A DNA stretch of 64,000 bases from Candidatus Fervidibacter sp. (GCA_041446875.1 JBGOEW010000006.1:4326-68325), one strand, 5' to 3'. Numbered from the stretch's first letter, positions 97 through 61,135 are shown. The notes: generated by a model from the letters alone, not told the origin. Made by a program: numbers and translations.

Positions 97-300
97 AAAC
101 GGCAGCGACTGGCGAATAGCGATTGGCGACCGGTCAAACGGCAGCGATGGGCGATTAGCGACTGGTAAACGGCAGCGAAGCGAATAGCAAACTGGCGAAT
201 TGTGGCTATTTAGCCACGACGGAAAAAACAGCCACGACGGAAAACGGAAGCAGCCACGACGAAAACAATCAGCCACGACGGAAAACCGAAGCGAATGGAG
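97..300. repeat. Composite intergenic repeat: heptamer blocks plus AGCCACGACG(G)AAAA tandem copies
   Basis: AAACGGCAGCGA at 97, 136 and 167. GTGGCTA-TT-TAGCCAC palindrome at 202-217. AGCCACGACG(G)AAAA at 212, 230, 252 and 271. Confidence 0.85.
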
Positions 301-307
301 TGAGCCA

Positions 308-1855
308 TCAAAGGGGCAAGGCAACGCCGTCGCCGCGAAGGTCGGCACAGCCGCACCAACTGTCGCCGACCCGCTCAATGCCGTGCGCCACGCCCGTCCC
401 ACCAGGGTAAGGGACGAGTTGCGGTTGCCAGCCGAGGGAGAACAACTCTGTCGGGTCAGCCAACCCTTGCTCCACGAGCAAAGTTCGCCCGCCCAGCCAA
501 AGGGCGCGGGGTGCTTCTATCGCCGCTTGCAACGACATCCCAAAATCCAGCCAACGGAGCAAAATCCATGCGTGAATGGTCGGGCGGAAATCGCCGCCAC
601 TGGTGCCTAAAAGCCCTTTCACTGCGCCCCGTTCGTCCAACACCAGCAACACCGAAAGGGTGTGGCGGGGTCGTTTACCGCCCATCAGTTCGTTGGGATG
701 TCCTTCCGTCAGCACGAAGTTGGCGCCGCGATTTTGAAAGAGCACGCCCGTTTGAGGCTCCAAAATGCCCGACCCGAAAGCGTGAAAGAGGCTTTGAATG
801 GCTGAGAGGGCGTTGCCGTCAGCGTCCACGATGACGAAGTTAGTCGTGTCGCCGTCCGAGGAAGCCAACCGAAGGGGCGGTTGCGAAAGGCGTTGGCGCA
901 AGCGCTCAAGGCGTTCGGGGCTCAAAAGCATTTCGGGCGGATGAGGCACAAAGTCTGGGTCGGCAAGGTAAGCGTCCCGCTCTTCGGCGACGAGGGTGGC
1001 GATGGCAGCGACATGGGCGACTAATTCCGCTGCTTTCCACCGATTGACAGGCAACGATTGCAGCAGCGCCATCGTTTGGAGCGTGGCGATGCCCAACGAA
1101 TTAGGTGGAAGTTCCAACAGCGTGACATTGCGGTAGCGCAGGGAAATTGGTGACACCCATTCGCCACGATGGCTGGCGAAATCGTTGGGCGTCATCGGGC
1201 TGCCCAAGCGTTGCAAATGAGTCGCCAACTTTTGTGCTGTCTCGCCCGCATAAAACCCGTCTCGCCCTTCGGCGGCGATGCGCTGAAGGGTTTGCGCCAA
1301 AGCGGGTTGGCAAAGGCGTTGCCCTGCGGTCAAGGGCTTGCCGTTGCGGAAGAAGACGGCGCGACAACCTTCATCGTGCGCCAATCGTTCGGCGTTGGTG
1401 GCGATGGCGTGGGCAAGTTTGGGTGAAACGACGAAACCTTCCTCGGCGACAGCGATAGCGAATTGCCAAAGCGATGCCCATCGGAGTCGTCCAAAGCGTT
1501 GATGGAGTTGCCAGAGGGCATCCACCAAGCCCGGGGCGGTGACCGAAAGAACGCTGTAGGTGGGCATCGTTCGCAAACCTCGTCGGCGCAAATCGGCGGC
1601 GGAAAGATTTTTGGGGGCGCGCCCACTGCCGTTGAAAGCGAGGGCGGTTTGCTCTTTCGCCAACCAAGCCAACCCAAAAAAGTCGCCACCCAACCCACAA
1701 AGGTGCGGGGTGACGACGGCGAGGGTGGCGCCGACGGCGACAGCGGCGTCGGCGAAGTTACCGCCTTGACGAAGAATTTGCCAACCTGCCAGCGTTGCGA
1801 GCGGATGTTCCGAAACAATCATCCCCTTGACAGACCAGGCGGGCATCTTGAGCAT
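308..1855 (-). CDS. ggt: Gamma-glutamyltransferase family protein
   Basis: N-terminal GGNFADAAVA...PHLCGLGGD, autoprocessing GDTTNF (Thr nucleophile), KRPRHTLS and GTSGG motifs. The start is placed at ATG 1855, just after the upstream stop; the ORF track starts at 1879. Confidence 0.92.
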   Translation of the reverse strand: MLKMPAWSVKGMIVSEHPLATLAGWQILRQGGNFADAAVAVGATLAVVTPHLCGLGGDFFGLAWLAKEQTALAFNGSGRAPKNLSAADLRRRGLRTMPTYSVLSVTAPGLVDALWQLHQRFGRLRWASLWQFAIAVAEEGFVVSPKLAHAIATNAERLAHDEGCRAVFFRNGKPLTAGQRLCQPALAQTLQRIAAEGRDGFYAGETAQKLATHLQRLGSPMTPNDFASHRGEWVSPISLRYRNVTLLELPPNSLGIATLQTMALLQSLPVNRWKAAELVAHVAAIATLVAEERDAYLADPDFVPHPPEMLLSPERLERLRQRLSQPPLRLASSDGDTTNFVIVDADGNALSAIQSLFHAFGSGILEPQTGVLFQNRGANFVLTEGHPNELMGGKRPRHTLSVLLVLDERGAVKGLLGTSGGDFRPTIHAWILLRWLDFGMSLQAAIEAPRALWLGGRTLLVEQGLADPTELFSLGWQPQLVPYPGGTGVAHGIERVGDSWCGCADLRGDGVALPL

Positions 1856-1860
1856 CGTCG

Positions 1861-3969
1861 TCACCACCGCGTCAGCCATTCAATGAGGGATTGCCACGAC
1901 CATTGGGAGCGGACGAACCAGCGGGCGTAGTTGCGGGCTTGTTGGCGGAAAGTTTGCAGGGCTTGGCGGGCGGCTTGGCAATCTTCATCGGACGGTTCAA
2001 CGCCTGCGTAAAGCGTTATCACGACCAAATCCGCCAAGCGTCGGAAGGCTGACCTGCCCGCGACGGGGAAGCGAGGGATGGTGTCGCACCGTTGGGCGTT
2101 TTCCCAAGGGGTGTCGCGAATGTCAAGGGGCAAACCCAAGCGGCGGGCATAACGGACGGCGGAAAGGTAAGCGTCTACGAGGCGGCGCCAACGGGGCTTA
2201 GGGCGATAAGTCTCCCAAGCGAGGCGCCCCGCTTGAACGGCGAGGGGGAAGGCAGCCATCATCCAAAGGGCAGCAACCAGCCACCAGATGAAATTGGGAC
2301 TGACAAGGGAGAGGCGGTAAGAGCGGGACACCCATTGCTGCATGCGTTGGAGGAGATTTTGGCGGCGGGTGATGGCGCCGCTGGGGGTGGCGTCCAAAGT
2401 GACCCAACCGTGCCCGTCAATGTAGGCTTCCACCCAAGCGTGGGCATGGCTGGCGCGAATCAAAAGCGTCCCTTCGGGGGTGACTTCATCGCTGTAAAAG
2501 CCCGTGATGACGCGGGCGGGAATACCGACGGCGCGGCACATCAAAGTCAGGGCACTGGCGAACCAATCGCAGGCGCCCTCTCTGGCTTCAAAGAGGAAGA
2601 ACGCCACGACATCACGAGGTTCGCGCCAAGCAGGCGGAGGGGAAATGGAATAGCGATAGTGTGTCCGAAGGAAGGCTTCCAAGGCTTTCGCCTTTGCGTA
2701 AGGTGTGTCCAAGCCCTGCGTGATTTGTTGGGCTAAGAGGCGGACGGGATGCAAGTAGTAGGGAAAGGCGGTAAGGAGACGCCGCTCCATGGGTTTCAAG
2801 GGTGGGTCGGTGTCAGGGGGCGGGGGAAGTTCGGGGAGGGGACGGGCACTCACGCGATAGCGATAAGTTTCCAGTTGACGCAAGGGCAGCAGACAACCGC
2901 TGGGCGTTCGGGGCACAGGGAAGGGCGAAGTTTGACGGATGCGAAGCCGTTGGACGACGCCAGGAACGGGCAGTTCATTCAGGAAACCCAAGGGGGCGGT
3001 GATGATGGCAGTTTGGGTCGGCAGGCGGTGGGGCGGGTTGGTTTCCCAGACCAACTCCACCACACCCGGTCGGTTGGTGGGGCGCACCGAGAGGGGTAGT
3101 TGAGGCTCGGTGTCCAAAGGACTAACGCGCCAGCCTGAGCCGAGGTAATGAGTGTAAGAACGAACCCGCCAACGGGGATAAGTTGTGCCCCGCACCTCGT
3201 AAATCACGGTGTCGGGCAAGTTGATCGGACCACCGGGCATCGTGAAGACATCGGGGAATTCCACGCCGCTACCGACAAGGGTCGCAAACTGGATGCGGGG
3301 CAGGCGCATCAGTTGGCGGCTTAAGGGCTCTTGCAAGAGGGTGGCGGGGGGCACCAACAGCAAGCCGATAGTCAACACGAAGGCGCTGGCGATCACGGCT
3401 AATCGCCAACAGTAGCGCAAAAACATCGGCGCCGTGATAGCGCCCAAATGTCCCCGTTGCCATCGGATCAAAAGGCTTTCGGCGCTGACCAAGAACAAGC
3501 CGATGACCATCGCCATGACGATGCCCCAGACACTCTCTGCCGTCACAAATAGCGGGATAATCAGCCCAAAGAGGGAAAGGGTGGGGACGACGAGGAAGGA
3601 AAGCCCTGCGTAAAATTGCCCCCAGTTTCGCCCGACCCAGAAAGCGACCAAGACAGTGACGATGCTGACCACCGCCAGCCATGCGATATCAGCAGGGGCG
3701 TTCCCTAAGAAGGCGAGGGGAAATTGGGTGACCAAGAGGGAAAGGAGCGTCCCTTGTCCGCCCAGCCAAAGGAGCCATCCGATGCCTTTGCCCCAAGGGG
3801 TGTGGGTTTGAAGGAAATTCGCCACGATTCCAAGGCTCGCCAGCGAAAAACACATCAAGGCAAAGGAAGGGCTTTCCACCGTCAAACCGACCATCCAGAA
3901 ATCCACCGCCAACAAAACGAGGGCAGCAAGATAAAGGGGCGAAAAAACCACCCACTTTCGCGTCGTCAT
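1861..3969 (-). CDS. Membrane-anchored transglutaminase-like protein (TgpA/DUF3488 type)
   Basis: Several N-terminal TM segments and the catalytic GACDWFASAL (Cys), HAWVE (His), LDATP (Asp) triad. ATG 3969 overlaps the upstream stop (ATGA). Confidence 0.9.
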   Translation of the reverse strand: MTTRKWVVFSPLYLAALVLLAVDFWMVGLTVESPSFALMCFSLASLGIVANFLQTHTPWGKGIGWLLWLGGQGTLLSLLVTQFPLAFLGNAPADIAWLAVVSIVTVLVAFWVGRNWGQFYAGLSFLVVPTLSLFGLIIPLFVTAESVWGIVMAMVIGLFLVSAESLLIRWQRGHLGAITAPMFLRYCWRLAVIASAFVLTIGLLLVPPATLLQEPLSRQLMRLPRIQFATLVGSGVEFPDVFTMPGGPINLPDTVIYEVRGTTYPRWRVRSYTHYLGSGWRVSPLDTEPQLPLSVRPTNRPGVVELVWETNPPHRLPTQTAIITAPLGFLNELPVPGVVQRLRIRQTSPFPVPRTPSGCLLPLRQLETYRYRVSARPLPELPPPPDTDPPLKPMERRLLTAFPYYLHPVRLLAQQITQGLDTPYAKAKALEAFLRTHYRYSISPPPAWREPRDVVAFFLFEAREGACDWFASALTLMCRAVGIPARVITGFYSDEVTPEGTLLIRASHAHAWVEAYIDGHGWVTLDATPSGAITRRQNLLQRMQQWVSRSYRLSLVSPNFIWWLVAALWMMAAFPLAVQAGRLAWETYRPKPRWRRLVDAYLSAVRYARRLGLPLDIRDTPWENAQRCDTIPRFPVAGRSAFRRLADLVVITLYAGVEPSDEDCQAARQALQTFRQQARNYARWFVRSQWSWQSLIEWLTRW

Positions 3970-5165
3970 ACCCTTCCCTCCCCTGCCCCTATCGGGCGTG
4001 ATGGGATGGCTACTTCCTGTGAGCGCCACGGCAATTGCCAAACGAGCCAACCTGCCTGCGCCGCCCCCTCAAATCGGGCTAAGAAGGGCGACAAGGGCGT
4101 CGTCAAAATCACGCCCGCACCTTGCTCGGCGAAATCCTCAGGCAACATGTAAGGCTCAGGGGAAAGCAACGCCAGCGAGCGCCAAAGGGCGTGCCAATCT
4201 TTGCCCGTCACGGTCAAAGGTGGGTCGGGCGGCACCCAAAAATGCACCTGATAGCCATCCCGAAACCATCTTTGCAGCAAAAAAGCGGCGAACCGCACCA
4301 ACTCATCCAGCGTCGTCTCTTCGTCGGTCAAGGGGCAATGGGCGTGGGGATGGCGATCCAGCAAAAGCAGGCAACCTTCCCGCAGGGCAGGCAACATCTG
4401 TCGGACGAACAACTCGTCCCGATGGGCAGTGATTTTCCAGTGGAGATAGCGCAAAGGGTCGCCCGGTTGATAAGGGCGGACGCCCCACGCTTCTGCGCCT
4501 GTCGGCGTCGGCAGCCAAAGGGCTGCGGTCGTCTCCTCCCACCGAGGGATTTGCTCAGCACCACGCGGTGTCAAGTCAAGGGGCTTGGGTCGGGGATAGA
4601 CGAGGATAGCAGCATCCATCTTCACCGACCGCCGCACGATGAACAACCCGAGGGGGTCTTGCCCCCAAAGTTCTGCCGTCCCGACAGGATGCAAACCCCG
4701 TCGGCGAAACCAAACTGTCAAGGTCGCTTCCGCTGGTTGTTGACGGGTGGCATGCCCAAAGACGAGGTGCGAAGGTCGGTCCGTTTGCGCCCCGCTGGGC
4801 AAAGTCACCCGCGCCTCCACGAGGAAGCGAGGCAATCGCCCCTCGTTCACCAACCGCAAGCGCAAAGTCGTCGGTTGCCCCTCTACCACTTCAGGGGTGG
4901 CGACCACTTCCAGCCGCAGGGGATGCAAAAGCCAATGGGCAAAGAAGAAGGCAAACGCCCAAAGCAACATCAGGCTGAAAGTGATCAGGAACAGCAACGG
5001 GATGCCCAAGACGAGGCTGACTAAGGCGAAGACGATGATGGCGGTCAGCAACGCCGTCCGACGAAGGCGGGGCGTTAGCAGGGTCGTCTCCATGTCATTG
5101 GGCAGCCTTTGAGCGTCTTGGGCATCCATGCCTTCTCGCTCCCTTTCCCCTAAGGGTTTTGTCAT
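3966..5165 (-). CDS. DUF58 domain-containing protein
   Basis: N-terminal TM, RRGLHPVG...DPLGLF...LVYP and VRPYQPGDPLRYLHWK motifs. Lies between moxR and the transglutaminase with ATGA overlaps. Confidence 0.9.
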   Translation of the reverse strand: MTKPLGEREREGMDAQDAQRLPNDMETTLLTPRLRRTALLTAIIVFALVSLVLGIPLLFLITFSLMLLWAFAFFFAHWLLHPLRLEVVATPEVVEGQPTTLRLRLVNEGRLPRFLVEARVTLPSGAQTDRPSHLVFGHATRQQPAEATLTVWFRRRGLHPVGTAELWGQDPLGLFIVRRSVKMDAAILVYPRPKPLDLTPRGAEQIPRWEETTAALWLPTPTGAEAWGVRPYQPGDPLRYLHWKITAHRDELFVRQMLPALREGCLLLLDRHPHAHCPLTDEETTLDELVRFAAFLLQRWFRDGYQVHFWVPPDPPLTVTGKDWHALWRSLALLSPEPYMLPEDFAEQGAGVILTTPLSPFLARFEGAAQAGWLVWQLPWRSQEVAIPSRPIGAGEGRV

Positions 5166-6127: not shown

Positions 6128-6157
6128 AACCTCCTTGACGGCACTGGCTTTTTCCCG

Positions 6158-22690: not shown

Positions 22691-22734
22691 AAAACGGCAG
22701 CGAATAGTGAGTAGCGAATGGCGAGTGGCGAATG
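22691..22734 (+). repeat. Tandem heptamer array (GCGA(A/G)T(A/G)-type) led by AAAACGGCA
   Basis: GCGAATA-GTGAGTA-GCGAATG-GCGAGTG-GCGAATG at 22700-22734. Confidence 0.85.
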
Positions 22735-22740
22735 ATTTGG

Positions 22741-22767
22741 CGGGATGTTTTGGTCTAACACGATCAT
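22741..22767 (-). pseudogene. 9-codon relic of a PIN-like (DUF5615-type) toxin gene
   Basis: ATG overlaps the DUF433 stop (ATGA). Reads MIVLDQNIP, like the hhLDENhP PIN start, then runs into the heptamer array. Confidence 0.55.
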
Positions 22768-23039
22768 TGAGCACTCCCGACCTTTGCCACTGTTACCCGC
22801 TGTCGGTTCACCTGTCGCATTAGGGCGTCCTTTGCTAACTTCACCGCTTCAGCGATATGTTCGTGGGTCAGATAGCCGTCAAAGTTGCGGCAGATTTCGT
22901 CCCAACTCATGCCCTTTGCCACCATGTCCAAGACGACGGAGACGAGGATTCTCGTGCCCTTGAAAGTCAGCGCCCCATGACAAACTTTCGGGTCGCTGAC
23001 GATATAGCGCCCATACTCTCGCCGCTTCATCGCGGTCAA
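22764..23039 (-). CDS. DUF433 domain-containing protein (antitoxin-like)
   Basis: IVSDPKVCHGALTFKGTRILVSVVLDMVAKGMSWDEI...LTHEHIAEAV is the DUF433 signature. Confidence 0.9.
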   Translation of the reverse strand: MTAMKRREYGRYIVSDPKVCHGALTFKGTRILVSVVLDMVAKGMSWDEICRNFDGYLTHEHIAEAVKLAKDALMRQVNRQRVTVAKVGSAQ

Positions 23040-36048: not shown

Positions 36049-36807
36049 GTGACGCTGATGGCAGGCGAGGAACGACAGGATGTTCAGCAACCTGCCTTCC
36101 CTGCCCCTTTCGTCTCCGTCATCATTCCCGCCCACAATGAAGCCGACCGCATCGCCCCAACAATCGCCGCTTTGAAGCGGGCGGCGGAGCGAAGTGGATG
36201 GGCTTGGGAACTGATTGTCGTGGACGACGCTTCCGATGATGACACCGCCACCGTCGCCGCTCAAGCGGGGGCGACCAAAGTTTTCCGCCTTTCTCGTCCC
36301 TCGTCCCTCGTCCCTCGTCCCTTCGGCAAGGGGGCTGCTTTGCGAAGGGGCATCGCCGAAGCGAAGGGTGACATCGTGCTCTTCGTGGACGCCGACATCG
36401 GCGACGATGCCGAAAAATTTTGGACGCTGGTGGAGTGGGTTCGGCGGGGCGATGCCGACATGGCGATCGCCGCCCCGCCCCCCGACCCGAAGGGCGGAGG
36501 TTTCGGAATTGTCAAGACTTTTGCGGCGTGGGCAATCCAAAGGGCAACGGGTTTTCAACCGCAAGCGCCTTTGTCGGGGCAACGAGCCTTGCGCCGAACT
36601 GTGTTGGAACGCCTCCCAATCGCTGACGGCTACGCGGTGGAGACGGCGTTGACGATAGATGCCTTGCGAGCCCATTTTCGGGTCGTGGAAGTGCCCATCC
36701 CTTTCGGGCATCGGGCGTTGGGGAAAAGTTGGCGGGGCTTTTTGCATCGGGCAAAACAACTTTGGGACATCGCCAAAGCCGTCCTGCCCCGATTGCTGTC
36801 CAAGTGA
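36049..36807 (+). CDS. Glycosyltransferase family 2
   Basis: VSVIIPAHNEA, VVDDASDD, GKGAAL, FVDADI, PLSGQRA and GYAVET motifs. Confidence 0.9.
   Translation: MTLMAGEERQDVQQPAFPAPFVSVIIPAHNEADRIAPTIAALKRAAERSGWAWELIVVDDASDDDTATVAAQAGATKVFRLSRPSSLVPRPFGKGAALRRGIAEAKGDIVLFVDADIGDDAEKFWTLVEWVRRGDADMAIAAPPPDPKGGGFGIVKTFAAWAIQRATGFQPQAPLSGQRALRRTVLERLPIADGYAVETALTIDALRAHFRVVEVPIPFGHRALGKSWRGFLHRAKQLWDIAKAVLPRLLSK
36293..36320 (+). repeat. 4x CTCGTCC heptamer inside the GT2 gene
   Basis: Exact tandem CTCGTCC x4, read in frame as SRPSSLVPRP. Confidence 0.9.
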
Positions 36808-36822: not shown

Positions 36823-38379
36823 ATGACCTTAGAGCGCTTGCGCTTTGACCGAATGCCCGAACCGTTGGCGCAATTGGTGAAGGCAGCGGCAACCCTCGCC
36901 AACCAACACCGCTTGCGCCTTTACCTCGTCGGCGGCTGGCTACGGGATTTTGTAACGGCAGCGAGTGGCGAATGGCGAATGGCGAATAGCGACTACTCGC
37001 TACTCACTACTCGCTACTCGCCATTGGACATGGATTTCGCCATCTCCGCCGACCCGCTTCCTTTCGTGGAGCAGTTAGCGAAGCAAGTGGGAGGGCGGGT
37101 CGTTCGGCTGCACGATGACTTGCCGACGGTGCGATTAGCCCGATGGCTGGAAGACAACCCCGATGCTGTCGCCGATTTCACGGCGCTTCAAGGCGACTTG
37201 GAGAGCGATTTGCGCCGACGGGATTTCACCTGCAATGCCCTCGCCGTTGACGCCGTTGAACTAACGCAGCGTGGCGAAGCCCCCATCTTTGACCCGCTGG
37301 GCGGGTTGCAGCACATCATCCAGAGGTTGCTTGTGCTGACGCACAAACGAGCGCTGCAAAATGACCCCGTTCGCATCCTGCGCGCCTTCCGCTTCGCCGC
37401 CACTTTGGGTTTTGCTATCGCCCCCGAGACAAAAGTTGCCCTCGCCGAAGCGGCGCCCTTGCTGCTCAACGCTGCGCCCGAACGATTAACGATGGAACTG
37501 GCGTGGACTTTGCAAACGCCTCAAGCCGCCGAGATGCTCGCCTTGATGGACGAAGTTAGCGTGCTGACTTTTTTGCTGCCCGAATTGATGCCGCTAAAAG
37601 AAGTGCCTGCCGCTGGCTACCACCACTTGGATGGCTTTTGCCACACGCTGGAAGCCGTTCGGCAAATAGAGCGCGTGCTGCGGGCGGAGACGGAAGACGA
37701 CGAGTTCAACGCACTCCTTTCGCAGGTGCGGGACACTTTCAATGAGCGCTTCGGTTATCGGCGCACGGGTGTTTGGGTCGTCAAGTTTGCGACGCTCTTG
37801 CATGACATCGGCAAACCCGAAACGATGACGGTCGGCGACGACGGTTCAGTGCATTTTTATGGGCATGAAAAAGTGGGGGCTGAAAAGGCGGGAGGGATTT
37901 GCCAACGGTTGCGTTTGTCTCGGCGGGAGAAAGGCATCGTCGTCAGTTTGGTGCGCTACCACATGCGTCCCGTCTCGTTGGCAGGCGCCCACCGATTGAC
38001 GGAGCGCGCCCTACGGCGCTTTTGGCGTGACCTCGGCGATTTGGCGGGCATCTACTGCGTGGCGTTGTCGGCAGCCGATTTGATGGCGACGCGTGGGGCG
38101 GCGATGACCGACGAACATCGCCGACGCCACTATTTCGTCCTGCGCCGCTTGTTGGAGACGCACTTCGCCCTGCAAGAGATGCGACAACGACCTCGGTTGG
38201 TGACAGGACACGAAATCATGGAACGCTATGGCATCGGACCTTCGCCCCTCGTCGGTCAAGCCTTGCGCTTGGTGGAAGAAGCCATCTTGGATGGGCGGGT
38301 GCAAACGAAAGACGAGGCGTGGCGATTGCTGGACGAAGCGATGGCGCAAGGGCTTGAAAAGGCAAGCCAAAAACCTTAA
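36823..38379 (+). CDS. Class II tRNA nucleotidyltransferase (CCA-adding/poly(A) polymerase family) with HD domain
   Basis: YLVGGWLRD...DMDF, DLRRRDFTCNA, DPLGG, DPVRILRAFRFA and LLHDIGKP (HD) motifs. Confidence 0.92.
   Translation: MTLERLRFDRMPEPLAQLVKAAATLANQHRLRLYLVGGWLRDFVTAASGEWRMANSDYSLLTTRYSPLDMDFAISADPLPFVEQLAKQVGGRVVRLHDDLPTVRLARWLEDNPDAVADFTALQGDLESDLRRRDFTCNALAVDAVELTQRGEAPIFDPLGGLQHIIQRLLVLTHKRALQNDPVRILRAFRFAATLGFAIAPETKVALAEAAPLLLNAAPERLTMELAWTLQTPQAAEMLALMDEVSVLTFLLPELMPLKEVPAAGYHHLDGFCHTLEAVRQIERVLRAETEDDEFNALLSQVRDTFNERFGYRRTGVWVVKFATLLHDIGKPETMTVGDDGSVHFYGHEKVGAEKAGGICQRLRLSRREKGIVVSLVRYHMRPVSLAGAHRLTERALRRFWRDLGDLAGIYCVALSAADLMATRGAAMTDEHRRRHYFVLRRLLETHFALQEMRQRPRLVTGHEIMERYGIGPSPLVGQALRLVEEAILDGRVQTKDEAWRLLDEAMAQGLEKASQKP
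36954..37026. repeat. Inverted pair of heptamer arrays (hairpin) inside the nucleotidyltransferase gene
   Basis: AACGGCA then GCGAGTG-GCGAATG-GCGAATG-GCGAATA-GCGA, followed by TACTCGC-TACTCAC-TACTCGC-TACTCGC (reverse-complement units). Confidence 0.9.
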
Positions 38380-40389: not shown

Positions 40390-40650
40390 TTAAGCCGTCG
40401 GGGCGGGCAAGACATTCACGCGCACCTTGTCGCCCTTGCGGTCATAGACGACGACGCCATCGGTCAGGGCGAAAAGGGTAAAGTCGTTGCCCATGCCGAC
40501 ATTGCGCCCAGGCAAAAAGCGCGTCCCCCGTTGGCGGACGAGCACATAGCCCGCTTTGACAAACTCACCGCCATAGGCTTTCACGCCCAACCGCTTGGAG
40601 CGGCTATCGCGCCCGTTCTTGCTGGCGCCGCCCGATTTCTTGTGCGCCAT
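40390..40650 (-). CDS. rpmA: 50S ribosomal protein L27
   Basis: [24 protein letters not shown]...RQRGT...LFALTDG. Confidence 0.98.
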
Positions 40651-40676
40651 CGTCTCTCACCTCCGTCGTTCTAAGT

Positions 40677-40769
40677 CTAACGCTCTATCGCTTGCGGCAA
40701 AGGCAAGGGTTCGTCGGTCTGGATGATTTGCTCGCCCGCAACTTTGCCCTTGACGATGGGAAGGCTCAT
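40677..40769 (-). CDS. 30-aa small ORF (not in the ORF track), possibly an antitoxin-like relic
   Basis: GAGGTGA RBS 6 nt before ATG. Translates as MSLPIVKGKVAGEQIIQTDEPLPLPQAIER*. Confidence 0.45.
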   Translation of the reverse strand: MSLPIVKGKVAGEQIIQTDEPLPLPQAIER

Positions 40770-50074: not shown

Positions 50075-50341
50075 TTACCGATAGGCTTCCGACCTTAGGC
50101 GGACTTTTTCTACCCGCACGATGCGTTGTTCGGTGTCTACGCTGTAAATGATGCGATACTTGCCGACGCGCAATCGCCAACGGTTGCGCTCCCCTTGTAG
50201 TTTCTCGCAGCCTGAAGGGAACGGATTAGACGCCAACCCTCGGATGGCATCTTCAACCCGCTTTCGGATTTCCGAAGGCAACCCTTGAATTTCTTTGTCC
50301 GACGACCGAGCCACCCGCACCTCGTAAAACCGCCCCGCCAT
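50075..50341 (-). CDS. relE: RelE/ParE family toxin
   Basis: LASNPFPSGCEKLQGERNRWRLRVGKYRIIYSVD. Confidence 0.9.
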   Translation of the reverse strand: MAGRFYEVRVARSSDKEIQGLPSEIRKRVEDAIRGLASNPFPSGCEKLQGERNRWRLRVGKYRIIYSVDTEQRIVRVEKVRLRSEAYR

Positions 50342-50952
50342 TATCCCGACCCCTCACCGCCGTAGATGACATACTCGCCCCGCTCAATCTCCGCTAACGC
50401 CTCTTCATGCTCCCTGATCAACTCCGAGTCGGTGGCGAGTAAGTGGTCTTCGTAGTCCGCTAACGCCTCATCCATCAAACCCCAAAGAAAATCCCGCTCC
50501 GCCTCCCGCATCCCCTTGACAGCAGCGATCAACGCCTCCACCAAACCCTCGCCACCTTCCACTTGCACCCGACATCGCCCCGACCTTTCCCGCCTCACTT
50601 CTATCGCCACCAGCAAAACTCGCCCTCCCCATTCCATCGGCATCAAGAACTTCCATCCCACAACTTGCCCCTTGCCCCTTGCCCCCCGTCCCTCCTTTCC
50701 CCGCTTTCCTTCCCATCGCACCCACGCCTCTCCCGAAACCGCAACTTTCACCACAACCTCGCCTGCCTCGCCTTCTCCGTCTTCCTGCCCCTCAAAGAAG
50801 CGACGCAAATCAGGGTGGAAGGCGGAAAAGAAGCGATAGCGCAGTTTGGACGGCAAAAGCCACAAGATGGCTGCCAACCATCCGATGCGTTGCCGCTCCT
50901 CTTCCGTCAACCCTTCCTCTTTCACCTTCGCTGTCAGGCTCATCGCTTTCAC
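50341..50952 (-). CDS. Putative antitoxin, unusually long (203 aa)
   Basis: Directly upstream of and abutting relE. The acidic C-terminus LADYEDHLLA...ALAEIERGEYV is antitoxin-like, and there is an internal purine-rich low-complexity tract. Confidence 0.55.
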   Translation of the reverse strand: MKAMSLTAKVKEEGLTEEERQRIGWLAAILWLLPSKLRYRFFSAFHPDLRRFFEGQEDGEGEAGEVVVKVAVSGEAWVRWEGKRGKEGRGARGKGQVVGWKFLMPMEWGGRVLLVAIEVRRERSGRCRVQVEGGEGLVEALIAAVKGMREAERDFLWGLMDEALADYEDHLLATDSELIREHEEALAEIERGEYVIYGGEGSG

Positions 50953-51107
50953 CCCTTCGTTGCGTCATCATCTCGTCGGAGTGCCGAAAAGGCGCGACAA
51001 AAAATGCGCCATCAGCACGGCAGGCTTCTTTCGCTATTTCGTCGTGGCTGTTAGCCACTCCAACCCTTTGACGCCCCATCGGAGCGCCAAAAAAGCGTGA
51101 CTAAGTT

Positions 51108-51170
51108 CCTTTGCCTTTCGCCGTTCGCTAACTCACTATTCGCTACTGGCTATTCGCCACTCGCTGTCTT
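51108..51170 (-). repeat. Heptamer array downstream of yraN
   Basis: Minus strand GCGAGTG-GCGAATA-GCCAGTA-GCGAATA-GTGAGTT(A)-GCGAACG-GCGAAAG. Confidence 0.85.
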
Positions 51171-51612: not shown

Positions 51613-51650
51613 GCGACTGGCGATTGGCGACAGGCGAACGGCTAAGCGAG
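51613..51650 (+). repeat. Heptamer array upstream of yraN and the FG-GAP gene
   Basis: GCGACTG-GCGATTG-GCGACAG-GCGAACG. Confidence 0.8.
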
Positions 51651-51715
51651 CCTTGTGCCCATTTCCATCGGCTCAATTTTGCGGCAGGATGAAGGGACGA
51701 TTTCAAAGGCAGGTG

Positions 51716-53389
51716 ATGCCGATGCGCCGACAATGGCTTTGGCTGCTCGCTTTCTTCGTCGTCATCGCATCCGTTGCAACGCTGGTGGTGAACCCCAAGC
51801 GACCCACTTTGCCCGTTGAGCGAACCGTTGTCGCCCAAGTCCCTCCCGATTTCACCAACTGGCTGGCGACGGATTTGGATGGCGACGGCAAAGCGGAAGT
51901 CTTGCTGAATTACTTCAACCGACCGCCCTTGCTCCTTCGCTTGCCGACTTCCCCGACCTCGCCCGCATCGCTCATCCCGTTCCCCAAAGTTCGCCTTATC
52001 TTCCCAACCACGACGGAAATCCGAAAAGCGTCGTTGCCTTTGGCAAAAGCAGTGCCGATTCGGGACGGGCGCATCTTACGGTTAGTGCACTGGCGAAATA
52101 ATCGCTTCGTCTTTGAAACCCTGACCGACACACCGACCTACCCTGAATGGCACGATGTGGATGGCGACGGAAAAGCCAATGACCTGATTGCCTACGGTTC
52201 GCAAAAACGGTTTTGGTTCGTGTTGGACGGGCAAGGCGAATGGCGGTTCAAAACCGTTTTGCCCATCAAACCCATTCGCCCCCTCTTTGATGTCGGCGAC
52301 ATAGATGGCGACGGGAAATTGGATTGCCTTGTCGGTGGCGAAACCCGCTCCATCCTTTGGGGCGATGGCAAATCAGCGACTGTCTTGGGCAAAGCCTATG
52401 CCGAAGTAAATCACCTGCGCCTAACCGACATGGATGGCGATGGGCGCGAAGAAGTTGTCGGCTTCAAGCGGGAAGGGCACAACTATCGGATGGCGATCTG
52501 GACCTTTGACCGCCAGCGAAAGCGCTTGAGCCTTGTCGCCCTCTCCGACCCATTTCCCATCCGCCTCTCTTTTCGCACTAACATCAGCGGACACACCGTT
52601 CAAGGCTCACTACAATGCTTCAACTTCCTGCTGATAGACTTGGACGGGGATGGGCGCAAAGAAATCGTGGCGATTTGGAATGCGACGAATTTTCAAGTCG
52701 TTGCCTTCAAGCGTCCTGTCCCTGCCTTCCTCGCCCTTTTGTCACCGCCCTCTACCGAACTTGAATACGAACTACCCCGAGTTTGGCGACTCTTTTGGCG
52801 GGACGGTCAACGCTTGCGGTCACAGCCGTTGCGAATGCCCAAAGACTGGAAGGGTTTCCTGCTCACCAGAACCCCGCTGAACCTGCAAGGGCAACGCTTT
52901 CTCGTCACGACCCGCCTAATCTTTCGGCGTCGCTTCCATCCTCATCTGCTCTCGCTCCGACCGCTGCAATGGGACTTTTGGGAAAGTGCCCGCGTTTGGC
53001 GAGGCGCCATCTGGCGATTGCCCAACGGCAGAGACGCTTTCAATCCCGAAAAATGGACGAAAGTCGCCGAGTTGTCTGGCAGACCTCTCATCGCCGATTT
53101 GAATGGCGATGGGCAACCTGAAATCGTTTGGGATGGGACGGAAGAGCGGAACTTCGGTTGGCATGGGCAGCGTTGCCGAATAAATCTCCGATTTGGCATT
53201 GCCCTTTTTGACGGCAAACAGTGGCGACAATTTGAATGGCATCCTCAAAAGCCCCAACTGCCTGCGCACATCCAGCAACTCCCCGTTTTTCCCTTTCTGT
53301 CTCGCTTCCTTTTGCTCCCTGAAGGCAACCGAAAAGTTCTTCTCCTTGCCTTGCCCGACGGGACGATGGAACGGGTGGCGATGCGGTGA
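51716..53389 (+). CDS. Exported FG-GAP/VCBS repeat protein
   Basis: N-terminal TM or signal sequence and repeated DxDGDGxxE/D Ca-binding loops (DLDGDGKAE, DVDGDGKAND, DIDGDGKLD, DMDGDGREE, DLDGDGRKE, DLNGDGQPE). Confidence 0.85.
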   Translation: MPMRRQWLWLLAFFVVIASVATLVVNPKRPTLPVERTVVAQVPPDFTNWLATDLDGDGKAEVLLNYFNRPPLLLRLPTSPTSPASLIPFPKVRLIFPTTTEIRKASLPLAKAVPIRDGRILRLVHWRNNRFVFETLTDTPTYPEWHDVDGDGKANDLIAYGSQKRFWFVLDGQGEWRFKTVLPIKPIRPLFDVGDIDGDGKLDCLVGGETRSILWGDGKSATVLGKAYAEVNHLRLTDMDGDGREEVVGFKREGHNYRMAIWTFDRQRKRLSLVALSDPFPIRLSFRTNISGHTVQGSLQCFNFLLIDLDGDGRKEIVAIWNATNFQVVAFKRPVPAFLALLSPPSTELEYELPRVWRLFWRDGQRLRSQPLRMPKDWKGFLLTRTPLNLQGQRFLVTTRLIFRRRFHPHLLSLRPLQWDFWESARVWRGAIWRLPNGRDAFNPEKWTKVAELSGRPLIADLNGDGQPEIVWDGTEERNFGWHGQRCRINLRFGIALFDGKQWRQFEWHPQKPQLPAHIQQLPVFPFLSRFLLLPEGNRKVLLLALPDGTMERVAMR

Positions 53390-53392
53390 CGG

Positions 53393-54634: not shown

Positions 54635-54713
54635 GTGGCTCAATGAGAGGTTCGCTTTCCTTTTAGGAGTTAAATCCCGAACACCTTCATGCCTTAAAGG
54701 GAGGCAGGCAGGT

Positions 54714-55037: not shown

Positions 55038-55224
55038 CTTGGAAGAGGTGCAAGCATTAACGGTCGGCGAGACGGTGGAAGGAAAGTTTACGCTGGTCAT
55101 CGTTTTCAAGAACGGGCAAAGCCTTTCCTTTGGAAACTATTCGGATCGCGAAGAGGCTTTGAAGGAACTGACGAACCTTCTGATCAGGCTGAAGAGCCTG
55201 AGCCCAAAGGCGGTCTTGACATAA
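55003..55224 (+). CDS. Small hypothetical protein
   Basis: Purine-rich RBS before GTG 55003. 73-aa ORF ending just before the pdxS RBS. Confidence 0.55.
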   Translation: MLWAKVGEALVDLEEVQALTVGETVEGKFTLVIVFKNGQSLSFGNYSDREEALKELTNLLIRLKSLSPKAVLT

Positions 55225-55245
55225 TTGCCAAAGGAGGGGCAAGCG

Positions 55246-56160: not shown

Positions 56161-56194
56161 TGTAATGCCACCAACAAGCAAGAGCCAGCCCCTA

Positions 56195-56728: not shown

Positions 56729-56796
56729 GACCCATCACCGCCGCTTAATTGTGCCAATGCGTGGGCTGCTAAAGTTGGGAAACGGAGGGATGAGCG

Positions 56797-59106
56797 ATGA
56801 GGCGTTGGACAGCACGAAACTTGGTGGATTTAAAAGTTCCGATGGAGGTCGCCCTTAGTGCCGATGGCACCAAGATTGCCATCGTCGTCAGTGAACCCGA
56901 TTGGGAAGCAGGCGAAGTTTGGTCGCACCTTTGGCTTTGGCGGGACGGCGAACTTCAGCAATGGACTTTTGGCAAAGAGCGCGTCAGTCAACCCCGCTTC
57001 TCCCCCGACGGCAAATGGCTGGCTTTTTGGGCGCAACGGGGTGAACCCAAAGATAGCACTGAACCGAAGGCGCAACTTTGGCTGATGCCGTTGAGCGGGG
57101 GCGAACCCCGAGCCATCACCGATACCGACGAAGGCGTGACTGCTTTCGCTTGGCATCCTGACGGGACAGCCATTTGGGCAATCATCCCTGAACCCAAGCC
57201 CGACGAACGCAAACGCGCCGAAGACGCCGACCGAAAACGCAAACGCGACTACGCCTTCCATGACGACGAACTTCCCCGATGCGTTCTCTGGCGCTTCCGA
57301 ATGCCCGACGGAGATGGCGAGCGAGTGTTCATCGGCGATGCGGGCATTTACGAAATCACCTTGTCACCTGATGGCAACCGCCTTATTTTCGCCACGACTC
57401 AAACGGGCAAACGGGACGACTGGCGTCGCTCCAAACTTTTCTGGCTCGCCCTTGACAGTGCGGAAAAAACGCCCGTCGCCCTTTGCGAGCGGGCGGGCGC
57501 GCAATTTTCGCCCCGCCCTTCGCCCGACGGAAACTTCGTCGCCTTTTTAGGTTGGCGCAACCCTGAGCGCAGTTTCTCGCATCACTGCCTCTTCGTCGCC
57601 GACTTTGAGGGTAACTGGCGCGAAATCGCCTCGCTCCCCGATTTGGAAGTGGACGAACTGCGTTGGGTGCGCGACGGCTTTTGTTGCCTGCTGCAAACGG
57701 GCGTCACCTCGCAACTTTGGCGATTGGACGAAAGGGAAGCGATGCCCATCACCGATGCCGACTGGGTGATCACGGCATTGGATGTCACGCCCGATGGTAA
57801 CACTTTCGTCGCCATCCGCACCGATGACCAAAATCTGCCCGATGTGTGGCTTGGGAAAGACGACGGCGAACGAGTGCGATGGACAAAGGTGAGCGATTTC
57901 AACCCGCAAGTGAAAAGTTGGCAGTTGCCGAAGGCGCACCTCATTCAATGGCGCTCGGATGATGGCATGGCGATTGAAGGTGTCTTGTGGCTCGCTTCGG
58001 ACGAACCTCGCCCACCTGCCCCTTGCCCCACCGTCGTTTGGGTTCATGGCGGACCGAAAGGGCGGGCGATGAAGGCGATGCTTTCGGCGGCGGGTTTCCC
58101 CGCGTTTCTGGCGGCGAACGGTTACGCCGTTTTGGCACCCAACTTTCGTGGCAGCGGCGGTTACTCGGATGCCTTTGCGACGGCGAACTTTTGTGACTTA
58201 GGTGGCGGCGATTTCCGCGACATCCTTGCGGGCGTGGAATGGTGCATTTCTCAAGGCATCGCTGACCCCCATCGCATCGGGATTGCAGGCGGAAGTTACG
58301 GCGGCTACATGACCAACTGGGCGTTGGCGCATTCGGAGCGCTTCAAAGCAGGCGTTTCCCTTTTCGGTATCGCCCTGCTCTTCAGCGATTTCGGCAACAG
58401 CGACAATCCTTCTTGGGAGCCCGATTACTTGGGCGGGATGCCTTGGGAAGCCACCGACCTTTACCTGCATCGCTCGCCCTTCGTCTATGCCCATCGCATC
58501 CAAGCGCCTTTGCTCTTGCTGCACGGCGAAAGCGACCGCAACACCTTCATCAGCAACAGCCAAGAGATGTTCACGGCGCTGAAGAAATTGGGGCGGACGG
58601 TGCAGTTCGTCCGCTACCCCCGCGAAGGGCATGGCTTCCGCGAGCCTTATCACCGCGTTGACGCTTTGGAGCGCACCTTGCGCTGGTTTGACCGATGGCT
58701 GAGGGGCGACGCCTTTGCCAGTGCCACCCCTTTGGGCGAGAGGGCAGCCGATGACGAGTGGCAAGTTTGCCTGGCGCAAGTCCGCTATCCTGTTAGATGG
58801 GTGAATTGCCAACCGAGGGATGGGGAAGGGTTGGCGGAAGCGACGATCACTTTGCAAGCGAAGCGGGAAGGGATTCGGGTTTCGCTGGCGAAGGAAATTC
58901 GGCTGTGGGATGAGGAAGGGCGAGAGCATCCGCCATTGGGCATCGTGCAAGGGGAAGGCGAAAACAGTTTCGTCGTGGAAGGCGACTTGCAGGTTGCTGT
59001 GCCGAAGGGGCGCTCCCTTCCCTTGCGCCTTGCCTTCCGCTTGCCTTCCGACCGACACCCTTGTGCCTTGCAAATTCGTTACCTCACTTTGCGCTGCCAA
59101 TCCTAA
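56797..59106 (+). CDS. S9 family (acylaminoacyl/dipeptidyl) peptidase with a C-terminal extension
   Basis: PD40-like propeller (PRFSPDGKWLAF), VHGGP, GGSYGG (Ser), HGESD (Asp) and EGHG (His). Confidence 0.93.
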   Translation: MRRWTARNLVDLKVPMEVALSADGTKIAIVVSEPDWEAGEVWSHLWLWRDGELQQWTFGKERVSQPRFSPDGKWLAFWAQRGEPKDSTEPKAQLWLMPLSGGEPRAITDTDEGVTAFAWHPDGTAIWAIIPEPKPDERKRAEDADRKRKRDYAFHDDELPRCVLWRFRMPDGDGERVFIGDAGIYEITLSPDGNRLIFATTQTGKRDDWRRSKLFWLALDSAEKTPVALCERAGAQFSPRPSPDGNFVAFLGWRNPERSFSHHCLFVADFEGNWREIASLPDLEVDELRWVRDGFCCLLQTGVTSQLWRLDEREAMPITDADWVITALDVTPDGNTFVAIRTDDQNLPDVWLGKDDGERVRWTKVSDFNPQVKSWQLPKAHLIQWRSDDGMAIEGVLWLASDEPRPPAPCPTVVWVHGGPKGRAMKAMLSAAGFPAFLAANGYAVLAPNFRGSGGYSDAFATANFCDLGGGDFRDILAGVEWCISQGIADPHRIGIAGGSYGGYMTNWALAHSERFKAGVSLFGIALLFSDFGNSDNPSWEPDYLGGMPWEATDLYLHRSPFVYAHRIQAPLLLLHGESDRNTFISNSQEMFTALKKLGRTVQFVRYPREGHGFREPYHRVDALERTLRWFDRWLRGDAFASATPLGERAADDEWQVCLAQVRYPVRWVNCQPRDGEGLAEATITLQAKREGIRVSLAKEIRLWDEEGREHPPLGIVQGEGENSFVVEGDLQVAVPKGRSLPLRLAFRLPSDRHPCALQIRYLTLRCQS

Positions 59107-59125
59107 ATGCGAAGGAGGTTCGGCG

Positions 59126-59386
59126 ATGGAGCAGATAGAGAGGTTGATGGAAGAGGGCATCAATCTTGCCGATTTAGGTCGCCTTGAGGAAGCCATCGGC
59201 TGTTATGAGGAAGCCATCAACCTCTGTCGGCAATGGGCAGAAGGAAAAGGGCGGGAAGAGTTTTTAGCGAGGGCGCTGTCAAACAAAGGCGCAGCCCTTC
59301 GGCGATTGGGGCGTCTTGAAGAATCGCTGAATTGCCTGAATGAAGCCGTCGCCCTTTATCAGCAATTGACGAAATTGGAGGGGTGA
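59126..59386 (+). CDS. TPR-repeat protein, N-terminal fragment (in frame with the next ORF)
   Basis: AGGAGG RBS before ATG 59126. Two ~47-aa TPR-like repeats ending at TGA 59384-59386. Confidence 0.7.
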   Translation: MEQIERLMEEGINLADLGRLEEAIGCYEEAINLCRQWAEGKGREEFLARALSNKGAALRRLGRLEESLNCLNEAVALYQQLTKLEG

Positions 59387-59392
59387 AAGGAT

Positions 59393-60802
59393 TTGTCGGA
59401 TAAGTTGGCAGGGGCGTTGGTGAACAAAGGCAATGTGTTGGATGATTTGGGTCGCCCCCACGAAGCCCTCCAGTGCTATGAGGAAGCCATCATCCTCTTT
59501 AAGCGGTCAATGGAAAGACGAGGGCGAGCGGAATTGAACGAAGAATTAGCGTTGGCACTGATGAACAAGGGCGTGACGCTGCGAGGTTTGGGTCGCCTTG
59601 AAGAATCGCTGAACTGCTTTGATGAAGCCATCACGATTTATCGGCAACTTTGGGAGCAAGGGCAAGGAGCGCCCGCATATGAATTTGCGATGACGCTGAT
59701 GAACAAGGGCGAAACCCTTCTGCGATTAGGTCATCCTGAAGAAGCGCTGAGTTACTTTGATGAAGCCGTCGGAATTTTTCGGCGATTGGTGGAGAAGCAT
59801 CAGGGGTTCGCAGAATGGCTGGCATGGACATTAAGGGGCGAAGGCAAGGCGCTGGATGATTTGGGTCGGCAGGAAGAAGCGCTGGCACGCTACGATGAAG
59901 CCATCGCCCTCTATCGGCAATTGGTGGGGGTTGAAGGGCGAAAAGAGTTGGAAATGGAGTTGGCGGCGGCAATGATGAATAAGGGTGTCACCCTTCGGCG
60001 AGGAGGATGTTTGGAAGATGCGCTTCACTGCTTTGAAGAAGCCATCGGGATTTACCGACGATTGGTGGAAGTCGGAGGGCGAAGGGAACTGGTGAGCGAG
60101 TTGGCGTCAGCGTTGGTGAGCAAAGGAAATGCGCTCGCCGATGCGGATCGTCCAGAGGAAGCGTTGACATGCTATGACGAAGCCATCAGGGTCTATCGGC
60201 AACTGGTGGAAGTGGAGGGGCGAGGGGAGTTGGTGAGCGATTTGGCAGGGATACTGGTGAACAAGGGCAACGCACTCGCCGATCTGGATCGCTTTGAGGA
60301 AGCCCTCTGTCGCTTTGACGAAGCCGTCGCCATTTATCGGCAATTGGTGGAAAGGCAGGGGCAAAAGGAATGGACAGATAAGTTGGCAGCGGGGTTGATG
60401 AACAAGGGCGCAACCTTAGATGATCTGGGTCGCTTTGAGGAGGCGCTGCAATGTTACGACGAAGGCATCAGGTGGTGGGAGGAAGTGATGGAAGCGGGTT
60501 CAAAGCATGTGGCAGCCTGGCTTCTTCAAGGACTGGGCGTTCGGTTTGAACTGAAGCGACGAATGAAGGATTGGCGAGGGGCGGCGGAAGACATTTACCG
60601 AGCCCTTGCGGTCGTCCGACCTTTCTTCGGTGCAGAATCGCCCCCTGAAGTAACGGTGATGGCACTGACAGAGTTTCTCTTTCGGCTTCGCCTGTTAACG
60701 CCAGAAGAGTGGGCGGAACTGGACGAAGTGATGGGCGAAGAGAGTTTAGAGGAACTGCGGGATTGGTTTGAGCGATGGGGCAATGAACCTGTAAGCCAAT
60801 GA
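59393..60802 (+). CDS. TPR-repeat protein, C-terminal fragment (probable nonsense-split gene)
   Basis: Eight ~47-aa LAxALxNKGxxLxxLGRxEEALxCYDEAI repeats, in the same reading frame as 59126..59386. Confidence 0.85.
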   Translation: MSDKLAGALVNKGNVLDDLGRPHEALQCYEEAIILFKRSMERRGRAELNEELALALMNKGVTLRGLGRLEESLNCFDEAITIYRQLWEQGQGAPAYEFAMTLMNKGETLLRLGHPEEALSYFDEAVGIFRRLVEKHQGFAEWLAWTLRGEGKALDDLGRQEEALARYDEAIALYRQLVGVEGRKELEMELAAAMMNKGVTLRRGGCLEDALHCFEEAIGIYRRLVEVGGRRELVSELASALVSKGNALADADRPEEALTCYDEAIRVYRQLVEVEGRGELVSDLAGILVNKGNALADLDRFEEALCRFDEAVAIYRQLVERQGQKEWTDKLAAGLMNKGATLDDLGRFEEALQCYDEGIRWWEEVMEAGSKHVAAWLLQGLGVRFELKRRMKDWRGAAEDIYRALAVVRPFFGAESPPEVTVMALTEFLFRLRLLTPEEWAELDEVMGEESLEELRDWFERWGNEPVSQ

Positions 60803-61135
60803 CCGACGCCCCCATTCAACCTCCTGCCCAGCGGCGAAGAAAGCAGCCCTTCGGAGGGCGGGTTGTCACTTTGATACCCACTTTCACACGGACCACCGAG
60901 TCAAAATGACGACGGAAAGGAAATGCCCTTTGACTTTCTTTGCCTATGTTGCGTCGCCGTCAGTTCCGCCACCAAAGGCGAAAGTTCAGCGTCAGACCAA
61001 AAAGGCGTTGAGGTGCGCCTCAACATACACTAAGGTGTGTCCGCAAGGCAATGGCTATCACTTCCAGAAGCCTTTCAGCCAGAAAGATGAGGTAGGGGCG
61101 AGGCATCAGAGGGGTAAGGCAAGAGAGGGGCAAGG

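Follow-up and report, generated by a model that had tools for sequence, protein, structure and literature searches.

We have analysed a stretch of 64,000 nucleotides (hereafter the window) from the genome of a hot-spring bacterium, Candidatus Fervidibacter sp. (Armatimonadota), in which runs of degenerate tandem heptamers recur, and found that these runs belong to arrays dispersed genome-wide in several unit families, with tandem units of exactly 7 nt, in excess over other periods. The arrays resize in place, their slots persist between species, their unit families are replaced, conserved leaders accompany the modules, and the arrays extend to phage DNA. The runs are a variant of a known repeat class and not markers of toxin-antitoxin cassettes. 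On balance, we consider it probable that they form a heptanucleotide module system of the whole genus Fervidibacter, akin to the short tandemly repeated repetitive (STRR) sequences and G-rich heptamers described below, with turnover by slippage and by recombination or repair and with no need of a dedicated transposase.

Heptamer arrays in the window and in the whole genome

The window belongs to a metagenome-assembled genome (MAG) of 2.66 Mb in 114 contigs, 91.6% complete, referred to as G000. After analysis with Tandem Repeats Finder (TRF) and direct reading, heptamer arrays proved true at seven of the eight window sites listed in the original prediction, while the site at 61094-61135, predicted as a heptamer run at 61095-61135, was ruled out because its TRF period is 16 nt. 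In the window, five period-7 runs were counted against a mean of 0.47 in 100 dinucleotide shuffles. A strict scan of the whole genome gave 40 period-7 runs against 0-4 runs for periods 3-6 and 8-13, the only other periods above this background being 14 (28 runs), a multiple of 7, and 15 (12 runs); at a looser threshold the number of period-7 runs was 193. The periodicity of 7 bp above shuffled controls thus holds as it had been predicted. Two array patterns, GCGANTN and GGGRCRN (hereafter G-type), gave 54 and 70 matches in G000, respectively, against none for the reversed-pattern controls, and the genome carries in addition a few arrays of TTGGTCA-like and GGGGAYT-like units. The 11-mer AACGGCAGCGA is present in 97 copies.

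Two classes of arrays with different locations

The G-type arrays are mostly located inside genes. Using a crude codon-usage gene call, which gave 2399 genes and a coding fraction of 91% and may have missed small genes, 105 of 127 G-type arrays (83%) were found inside genes and 22 outside. The G-rich strand is the sense strand in 74 of the in-gene arrays and the antisense strand in 31, and near gene 3' ends 13 sense arrays were found against 3. The length is exactly 27 nt, corresponding to four units, in 77 of the 105 in-gene arrays and 18 of the 22 extragenic arrays, and in 110 of 144 G-type arrays when counted more widely. None of the six frames of a module contains a stop codon. As 7 and 3 are coprime, the cyclic peptide is identical whichever frame is read, being GTRDEGR for one strand and SSLVPRP for the opposite one. 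The arrays are read as loop inserts of 7-9 residues in the protein. A total of 81 genes (3.4%) carry such arrays, 16 of them two or more. By Pfam the hosts are ordinary conserved genes, including those for valyl-tRNA synthetase (ValRS, with three arrays), Mfd, a MiaB-like radical-SAM enzyme, UDP-GlcNAc 2-epimerase, TamB, rhamnosidase and M48 peptidase. When ValRS was aligned with the Thermus thermophilus enzyme (1GAX), two of its three arrays turned out to be insertions of 7 and 9 residues at alignment gaps, and the third lies in a variable stretch beside an alignment gap.

The four G-type units differ in make-up according to their position in the array, and leaders of the form AAACGG(A/C)AA precede the arrays, most clearly in the phages described below. 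Tandem sets of four-unit arrays, joined by 9-10-nt GAAACGGAAY spacers, were found on contigs C1 (about 40571-40680, minus strand), C56, C70 and C14 of G000, with a period of 36-37 nt (37 for modules of 27+10 nt), which for one or more of the sets cannot be divided by 3. Copy-and-paste of whole G-type arrays, to which an excess of identical 27-mers (47 against 12 expected) might point, was rejected after shuffling within the GGGRCG family, in which the excess is lost (47 against 37 +/- 7, P=0.11); no pair of arrays with common flanks was found.

The GCGANTN arrays, 94 in number, are mainly extragenic (72 outside genes, 7 at gene edges and 15 in genes), and their lengths (18 nt in 45 arrays, 25 nt in 27, 32 nt in 5 and 39 nt in 2) show a microsatellite-like fall-off. 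They are preceded by a leader, AAACGGCA, conserved to 55-67% per position, and followed by a trailer, NTGGTCAA (TGGTCAA); the conserved leader shows the GCGANTN modules to be copies of one common sequence. As many as 110 of the 242 GCGANTN units (45%) carry TAG in one frame (GCGAATA, GCGAGTA and GCGATTA), TAA is also found in some units, and the TAG-bearing units alone are sufficient to account for the rarity of this class in genes. For 51 of 80 extragenic GCGANTN arrays a gene 3' end is no more than 60 nt away; 39 of these have the sense and 12 the antisense orientation. Convergent spacers are enriched for the arrays (odds ratio 3.1, P=0.0014), and inverted pairs are rare (2 of 94). Frequently the arrays form part of mosaics that contain further short modules, chiefly a GTGGCT-N3-AGCCAC hairpin followed by GACGRAAA, of which the hairpin has 52 copies in the genome, 42 extragenic and 19 within 200 nt of a GCGANTN array. 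Other spacer modules, GGGCGAAC-N4-GTTCGCCC and GCGCCT-N3-AGGCGC (17 copies each), form mosaics that resemble bacterial interspersed mosaic elements (BIME) and occur without a RAYT transposase.

Change of arrays at orthologous sites

Orthologous loci covering about 150 kb were compared with G017 (Fervidibacter sp. 3300025345_2, about 93% nucleotide identity), with G014 (Ca. F. canadensis, 86-91%) and with three more distant species. The genomes are MAGs. Filled and empty sites, as had been anticipated, and also resized sites were observed. In genes, resizing takes the form of steps of exactly 21 nt. The array in the gene for a family-2 glycosyltransferase (GT2) has four units in the window and in locus L002 and a single unit in L001 and L003; the arrays at C7 9945 and C28 29321 have four units in most species and one in G014; and ValRS site 3 has one unit in four metagenome lineages and four in the others. 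The slots persist between species in which the flanks are only about 70% identical, and they are empty in outgroups from outside Fervidibacter. At 7-12% sequence divergence, indels were found in 6 of 21 aligned orthologous array pairs, and of 42 arrays recognised in G017 or G014, 11 are longer or shorter than their counterparts in G000.

Replacement of the unit family at a fixed slot was observed repeatedly. At C7 12190 the units are of the GGGACGA type in G000 and of the GCGACTG type in G017 and G014, with slot and length kept; the four slots of the C28 rhamnosidase gene alternate between GGGACGN and GGGACAN (switches include 27151, 27879 and 29321); C14 8902 carries six GGAGCAT units in G011; and family switches were found at ValRS sites 1-3, where GTGCGGR units are used too. 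The slot in the gene for the CCA-type nucleotidyltransferase, the product of which is 91% identical in protein sequence to that of the Ca. F. canadensis relative, has arms of the GCGAATG type in the window and of the GCGACTG type in both arms in L001 and L002, a short remnant in L003 and nothing in L004-L010.

Lateral growth and replacement of sequence were also found. ValRS site 1 of some lineages reads as one unit, then AACGGAAA, then four new units; a second array stands beside a resident one in G014, with 23 nt of coding sequence replaced; and at C14 1414 an event of +36 nt corresponds to a leader plus an array. For the window itself, the site at 97-200 has three modules, against seven modules and a 390-nt mosaic in G017, and the spacer before the same downstream gene in G014, where the upstream gene differs, has no modules. 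The array at 51108-51170 is about one unit (8 nt) shorter in G017 and has only about 2 units in G014, and that at 50664-50693 is present in G017, G014 being without both the array and the neighbouring low-complexity sequence.

Arrays at deletion junctions

Two arrays lie at deletion junctions in genes of the toxin-antitoxin type. In G014 the counterpart of 22691-22767 comprises about 950 nt, made up of an intact 131-aa gene partnering a DUF433 gene and a 146-aa gene; in the window only 47 nt of array and then the relic start of the partner gene are left, and in G017 arrays are located inside the partner gene, for which no Pfam match was found in G014. At C7 7872 an array replaces about 190 nt that encode a small addiction-module-like open reading frame in G017 and G014. 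The suggestion that arrays mark the insertion and deletion points of small cassettes is correct for these two junctions, and yraN, a further accessory gene, stands between two opposed arrays in the window; no genome-wide link was found.

When spacers carrying GCGANTN arrays were compared with all others, flanking genes of 170 aa or less were found in 17 of 65 as against 856 of 2220 (odds ratio 0.56, with the crude gene call), and multicopy small-gene families were not enriched beside these arrays (odds ratio 1.03). The predicted enrichment next to small accessory genes thus failed. Most arrays are of the G-type and inside housekeeping genes, and yraN with both its arrays is common to all three species compared. 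That the arrays are scars or handles of a process inserting and deleting small toxin-antitoxin-like cassettes is therefore highly improbable in our judgement. The arrays mark some indel points and are not tied to cassettes, and the association with toxin-antitoxin genes looks like a by-product, because such genes decay often.

Length preference and folding

The preference for exactly four units both inside and outside genes, as known for the G-rich heptamers of Rehm et al. 2015 (PMC4692102), raises the question of whether the arrays are kept for folding in DNA or mRNA, as a G-quadruplex (G4) from four G-tracts or as a hairpin from inverted arrays, with an effect on transcription end points, mRNA stability or translation. 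The sense bias of the G-type arrays in genes and of both classes near 3' ends, and the enrichment in convergent spacers would fit such a role, as would the low variability of the G-tract positions (2.2% substitution against 9.4% in the flanks), a comparison which has an ascertainment bias. Relatives, however, fill the same slots with GCGANTN units incapable of forming a G4, inverted pairs are few, and the host genes span all functions; furthermore, the growth of one seed unit by three units (21 nt) is the smallest in-frame expansion in genes as well. A cultivated relative grows near 80 C. In ViennaRNA, a crude model for this purpose, the RNA G4 has -9.5 kcal/mol at 37 C and is unfolded at 70-80 C. 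The occupation of the same slots by non-G4 units, together with the prediction of no RNA G4 at 70-80 C, weakens the case for a quadruplex, and we regard folding as an unlikely reason for the maintenance of the arrays.

Distribution of arrays among genomes

GCGANTN arrays occur in only five of the 18 genomes of the genus that were searched, G000 included. The pattern gave 151 matches in G017, 66 in G013, 8 in G014 and 7 in G011, in addition to the 54 in G000, and none in 12 other genomes of the genus; in eight other Armatimonadota families the matches were 0-3 per genome, without enrichment. The G-type was detected in 16 of 17 Fervidibacter genomes; the sister genus and order had 1-5 matches, and the eight other families had none. 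Among all genomes, the reversed-pattern controls gave no match for GCGANTN and one for the G-type, in G007. This distribution supports the predicted existence of a repeat-generating process specific to this lineage. At most loci the identity of G013 with G000 is about 71%, but at some (L144 and others) it is about 85%, and at the latter its arrays are identical to those of G017; to judge from these identities, the G013 bin may be a mix of two Fervidibacter populations, which would inflate its GCGANTN count.

A search for an enzyme, of the RAYT type or other, distributed together with the arrays had also been proposed. The Y1/RAYT transposase (PF01797) was not found in G000, G017, G013 or G014, MAGs of 84-95% completeness, and a reverse transcriptase (PF00078, RVT_1) was found only in G011 among 18 genomes of the genus. 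Since neither is co-distributed with the arrays, both were ruled out as drivers.

Heptamer modules in phages

Scanning of viral contigs for a leader plus array identified ten contigs, with genes for portal, terminase, capsid, tail-tube and tape-measure proteins. G000 has a single CRISPR array, at C54:14450-17751, with 51 repeats of a 30-nt sequence unrelated to the heptamers. Its spacers 28 and 29 match phage contigs (33 of 33 nt for the match in L256, 35 of 37 nt for that in L253), which indicates that these phages infect this lineage. A CRISPR origin of the GTTGGAGTGGCTATCAGCCACGACGGAAAAC module was considered and ruled out, the repeat of this sole real CRISPR array being unrelated and the spacing of GTTGGAGTGGCTATCAGCCACGACGGAAAAC irregular.

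In order to avoid selection on arrays, relatives of the portal protein were collected as the phage sample, giving 13 independent contigs (135 kb). They carry 66 period-7 runs, or 0.49 per kb, against 0.073 per kb in the host with the same detector, that is, an about 7-fold density; periods 6, 8 and 9 are nearly empty, and two members of the set have no arrays at all. More distant portal relatives (34-38% identity, GC content 63-69%) carry no arrays. Both classes occur in the phages, their leaders readily recognisable, and they lie between genes as well as in frame within the genes for portal and terminase. One 31-kb phage contig encodes MuA-like and MuB-like proteins, and the phage group is therefore Mu-like; the group (L253, L256, L262-L280) has a Mu-type portal and a gpA terminase. 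Between the phage contigs and the MAG no match outside the arrays was found at E <= 1e-20, nor was a prophage found in the MAG.

Origin of the modules

The observations on leaders and phages bear on a tentative alternative, of which we are doubtful, namely that each module, with its leader and 3-4 heptamers (about 36 nt), is a very small mobile element. It would be copied to new sites by a trans-acting activity that could be encoded by the host or by the Mu-like phages and would prefer existing arrays as targets. Conserved ends are indeed present, as the AAACGGCA leader and TGGTCAA trailer in one class and as AAACGG(A/C)AA before the other, and complete leader-plus-array units seem to have been added at C14 1414 and at ValRS site 1. 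The de novo appearance of arrays in the DUF433 partner gene, the patchy occurrence of GCGANTN arrays among species, and the high array density of phages with genes for MuA- and MuB-like proteins would also fit. Neither a target-site duplication nor a clean insertion was seen, however; filled sites replace sequence rather than add it. Likewise, a comparison with miniature inverted-repeat transposable elements was negative, in that leader and trailer are not mutual inverted copies and no duplication accompanies the filled-versus-empty sites compared. Against mobility stand also the lack of shared flanks between arrays and of an excess of identical arrays within the GGGRCG family, the lack of a RAYT or reverse transcriptase in the array-rich genomes, and the lack of a prophage in the MAG. 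Mu transposases act on Mu ends and not on heptamers.

It is conceivable, and in our view improbable, that Fervidibacter and its Mu-like phages share one micro-element system, in which a trans activity writes leader-plus-four-unit modules into fixed slots of genes and spacers and the phages are the main reservoir and the vehicle between species. Such an activity could come from the phage, or from a repair pathway of the host that responds to breaks. For the phage, the use of the modules could lie in short linkers for recombination, or in a resemblance to host sequence, which CRISPR could not attack without damage to the host itself.

The preferred mechanism, a heptanucleotide module system driven by slippage and recombination, would operate as follows. 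Replication slippage would change arrays in 7-nt steps, of which only multiples of 21 would survive in genes. Short-homology recombination or templated repair between arrays would lead to family replacement, lateral growth and the presence of arrays at deletion junctions, and arrays would arise and turn over in this way on whatever DNA these cells replicate. The two classes would then be sorted, and the sites at which arrays survive would be set, by selection for an open frame, against stop codons and for insertion into tolerant loops. A dedicated transposase would not be needed, and the link to toxin-antitoxin genes would be incidental.

Several observations weigh against this mechanism. The 97 copies of the AACGGCAGCGA 11-mer compare with about one expected by chance, and the conserved leader and trailer show that the GCGANTN modules have spread as copies, which is beyond pure local slippage. 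The four-unit length is kept in 18 of the 22 extragenic G-type arrays, including the tandem modules of 37-nt period, and therefore the reading frame alone does not explain it. The position-specific make-up of the units hints at a master sequence or at selection, and the G-tract positions are less variable than the flanks, subject to the ascertainment bias mentioned above. In the switches between G-type and GCGANTN units only CGA is shared, and homology-driven conversion is hard to picture there; finally, the 7-fold density in phages is not predicted by a passive host process. Given the poorly explained four-unit length outside genes, the 37-nt modules, the unit make-up, the G-tract conservation and the phage excess, a trans-acting mobile activity and selection for folding stay as rivals to slippage and recombination.

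Features of the window

The features of the window are summarized in Table 1. The original prediction that arrays lie in frame inside three genes was confirmed for those encoding the GT2 glycosyltransferase, the PolyA_pol/CCA-type nucleotidyltransferase and a 203-aa partner of the ParE toxin, and its placing of arrays just 3' of stop codons was found to be correct at 97 (after TGA), 22691 (7 nt after TGA) and 51108 (after the yraN stop). The accessory genes near the window arrays were identified as DUF433, ParE and UPF0102/YraN.

Table 1. Heptamer arrays and associated features in the window (positions counted from its first nucleotide)
Position	Strand	Feature	Remarks
97-200	+	Three tandem GCGANTN modules (97-135, 136-166, 167-200)	Each with AAACGGCA leader and 3-4 heptamers
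201-292	+	Companion module: hairpin GTGGCT-ATTT-AGCCAC, then four AGCCACGACGRAAAAC repeats	Part of extragenic mosaic
22691-22734	+	Leader and five GCGANTN units	At deletion junction, 7 nt after TGA stop
22741-22767	-	Relic start MIVLDQNIP of deleted DUF433 partner gene	Matches N-terminus of intact G014 gene
22764-23039	-	DUF433 gene	PF04255, E=1e-15
36293-36322	-	G-type array, (GGGACGA)x4	Plus-strand reading CTCGTCC x4.3, perfect
36954-37026	+	Leader, four GCGARTR units, then directly their reverse complement	
50664-50693	-	G-type array, (GGGGCAA)x3 and degenerate unit	CTTGCCC x3 at 50664-50685; sense in gene 50341-50952
51030-51064	-	Hairpin companion module GTGGCT-AAC-AGCCAC-GACGAAA	Conserved in G017 and G014
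51108-51170	-	GCGANTN array	Directly downstream of yraN (UPF0102) stop, sense orientation
51613-51650	+	Short degenerate GCGANTN array	Between yraN and FG-GAP gene; in all three genomes compared

The first module of 97-200 begins directly after the TGA stop (94-96) of a gene, visible in the window at 1-96, that ends in a long Gly-rich C-terminal tail of the FG type. This TGA stands in a trailer-like GGTGAAAACGGCA context, and it may be the repeat module that provides the gene with its stop. The array at 36293-36322 is read antisense as SRPSSLVPRP in the GT2 gene (36049-36807). That at 36954-37026 is in frame in the PolyA_pol-family gene (36823-38379), where it encodes about 24 residues between the RD and DxD motifs, and its predicted RNA fold has -36 kcal/mol at 37 C and -8.6 at 80 C. 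Two PolyA_pol-family genes are present in the genome, C39:18271-18651 and the window copy, which is the weaker Pfam match; with the array insert beside its catalytic DxD, the window gene may not be the sole CCA-adding activity. The gene for the ParE partner (50341-50952) overlaps the start of the ParE gene (50075-50341). The two arrays that flank yraN, 51108-51170 and 51613-51650, have opposite orientations.

The FG-GAP gene (51713-53389) exceeds its counterparts in G017 and G014 by about 1.5 kb; in these two genomes only the N-terminus and a short further part are left. An effect of the heptamers at 51613 on this length was ruled out, as the additional sequence is internal to the gene and begins beyond the N-terminus that all share, and the difference is probably due to recombination between internal repeats. 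A 141-nt tandem repeat (2.3 copies, 73% matches) is located at 60023-60352 inside a TPR gene (59393-60802), and the purine-rich 16-nt-period repeat at 61094-61135 lies just 3' of the stop of an lptF/lptG-type gene.

Comparison with known repeat systems

Heptamer repeats have been known since 1990, and the genus Fervidibacter represents an unusually clean system for the study of their cause, with discrete four-unit modules, with dozens of fixed slots in essential genes at which one unit alternates with four and one unit family with another, and with CRISPR-linked phages carrying the same modules at about 7-fold density. A cultivated relative exists. Two questions are testable here, namely whether replication and repair or a mobile activity is the source of the modules, and whether selection for a quadruplex maintains the length of four units. 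For annotation and structure prediction, loop inserts encoded by repeats are to be expected in about 3% of genes. A literature search for repeats of Fervidibacter returned nothing.

The cyanobacterial STRR heptamers, which Mazel and colleagues are said to have described in 1990, resemble the present arrays in that several heptamer families form tandem arrays scattered through one lineage, the few TTGGTCA-like and GGGGAYT-like arrays of G000 being a further likeness; they differ in phylum and in the dominant units, and in-frame use in essential genes is the rule in Fervidibacter. The Rickettsia palindromic elements, reportedly described by Ogata and colleagues in 2000, are said to be palindromic, to measure about 100-150 bp and to sit in frame within conserved genes. 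Here as there, in-frame repeats are tolerated in conserved genes as extra peptide segments; unlike those elements, which are palindromic and without tandem heptamers, the arrays of Fervidibacter are 27-70 nt long and resize in place. With repetitive extragenic palindromic (REP) sequences and BIME the present system shares extragenic mosaics of short modules, including hairpins at gene 3' ends, and a preference for convergent spacers, but no RAYT is present in the array-rich genomes and the heptamer arrays are not palindromic units. The small dispersed repeats of Nostoc are reportedly modules of 21-27 nt, located in genes, nested in other repeats and not built of heptamers; to our knowledge, no enzyme is known for them and no link to phages has been described. 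These repeats (Elhai et al. 2008) are cited in PMC4390886.

The closest counterparts are the G-rich heptamers of Rehm et al. 2015 (PMC4692102), GGGAATC in Xanthomonas and GGGGA(C/T)T in Nostoc PCC 7120, which mostly come as four units, favour non-coding DNA over open reading frames and avoid the coding strand, and have no known function; for their origin the authors cite the idea of polymerase slippage from Mrazek 2007. The arrays of Fervidibacter agree with them in the 7-nt unit, the single G-tract per unit, the genome-wide dispersal, the four-unit preference (here of the G-type only), the variation in length and sequence at the same site between close relatives, and the under-representation between divergent genes. 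In contrast to those repeats, 83% of the G-type arrays are located in genes, mostly on the sense strand, and an extra non-G4 class with leader and trailer is present, in a new phylum, a thermophilic host and with a heavy phage load. What is new in the heptamer arrays of Fervidibacter is the leaders and the link to phages.

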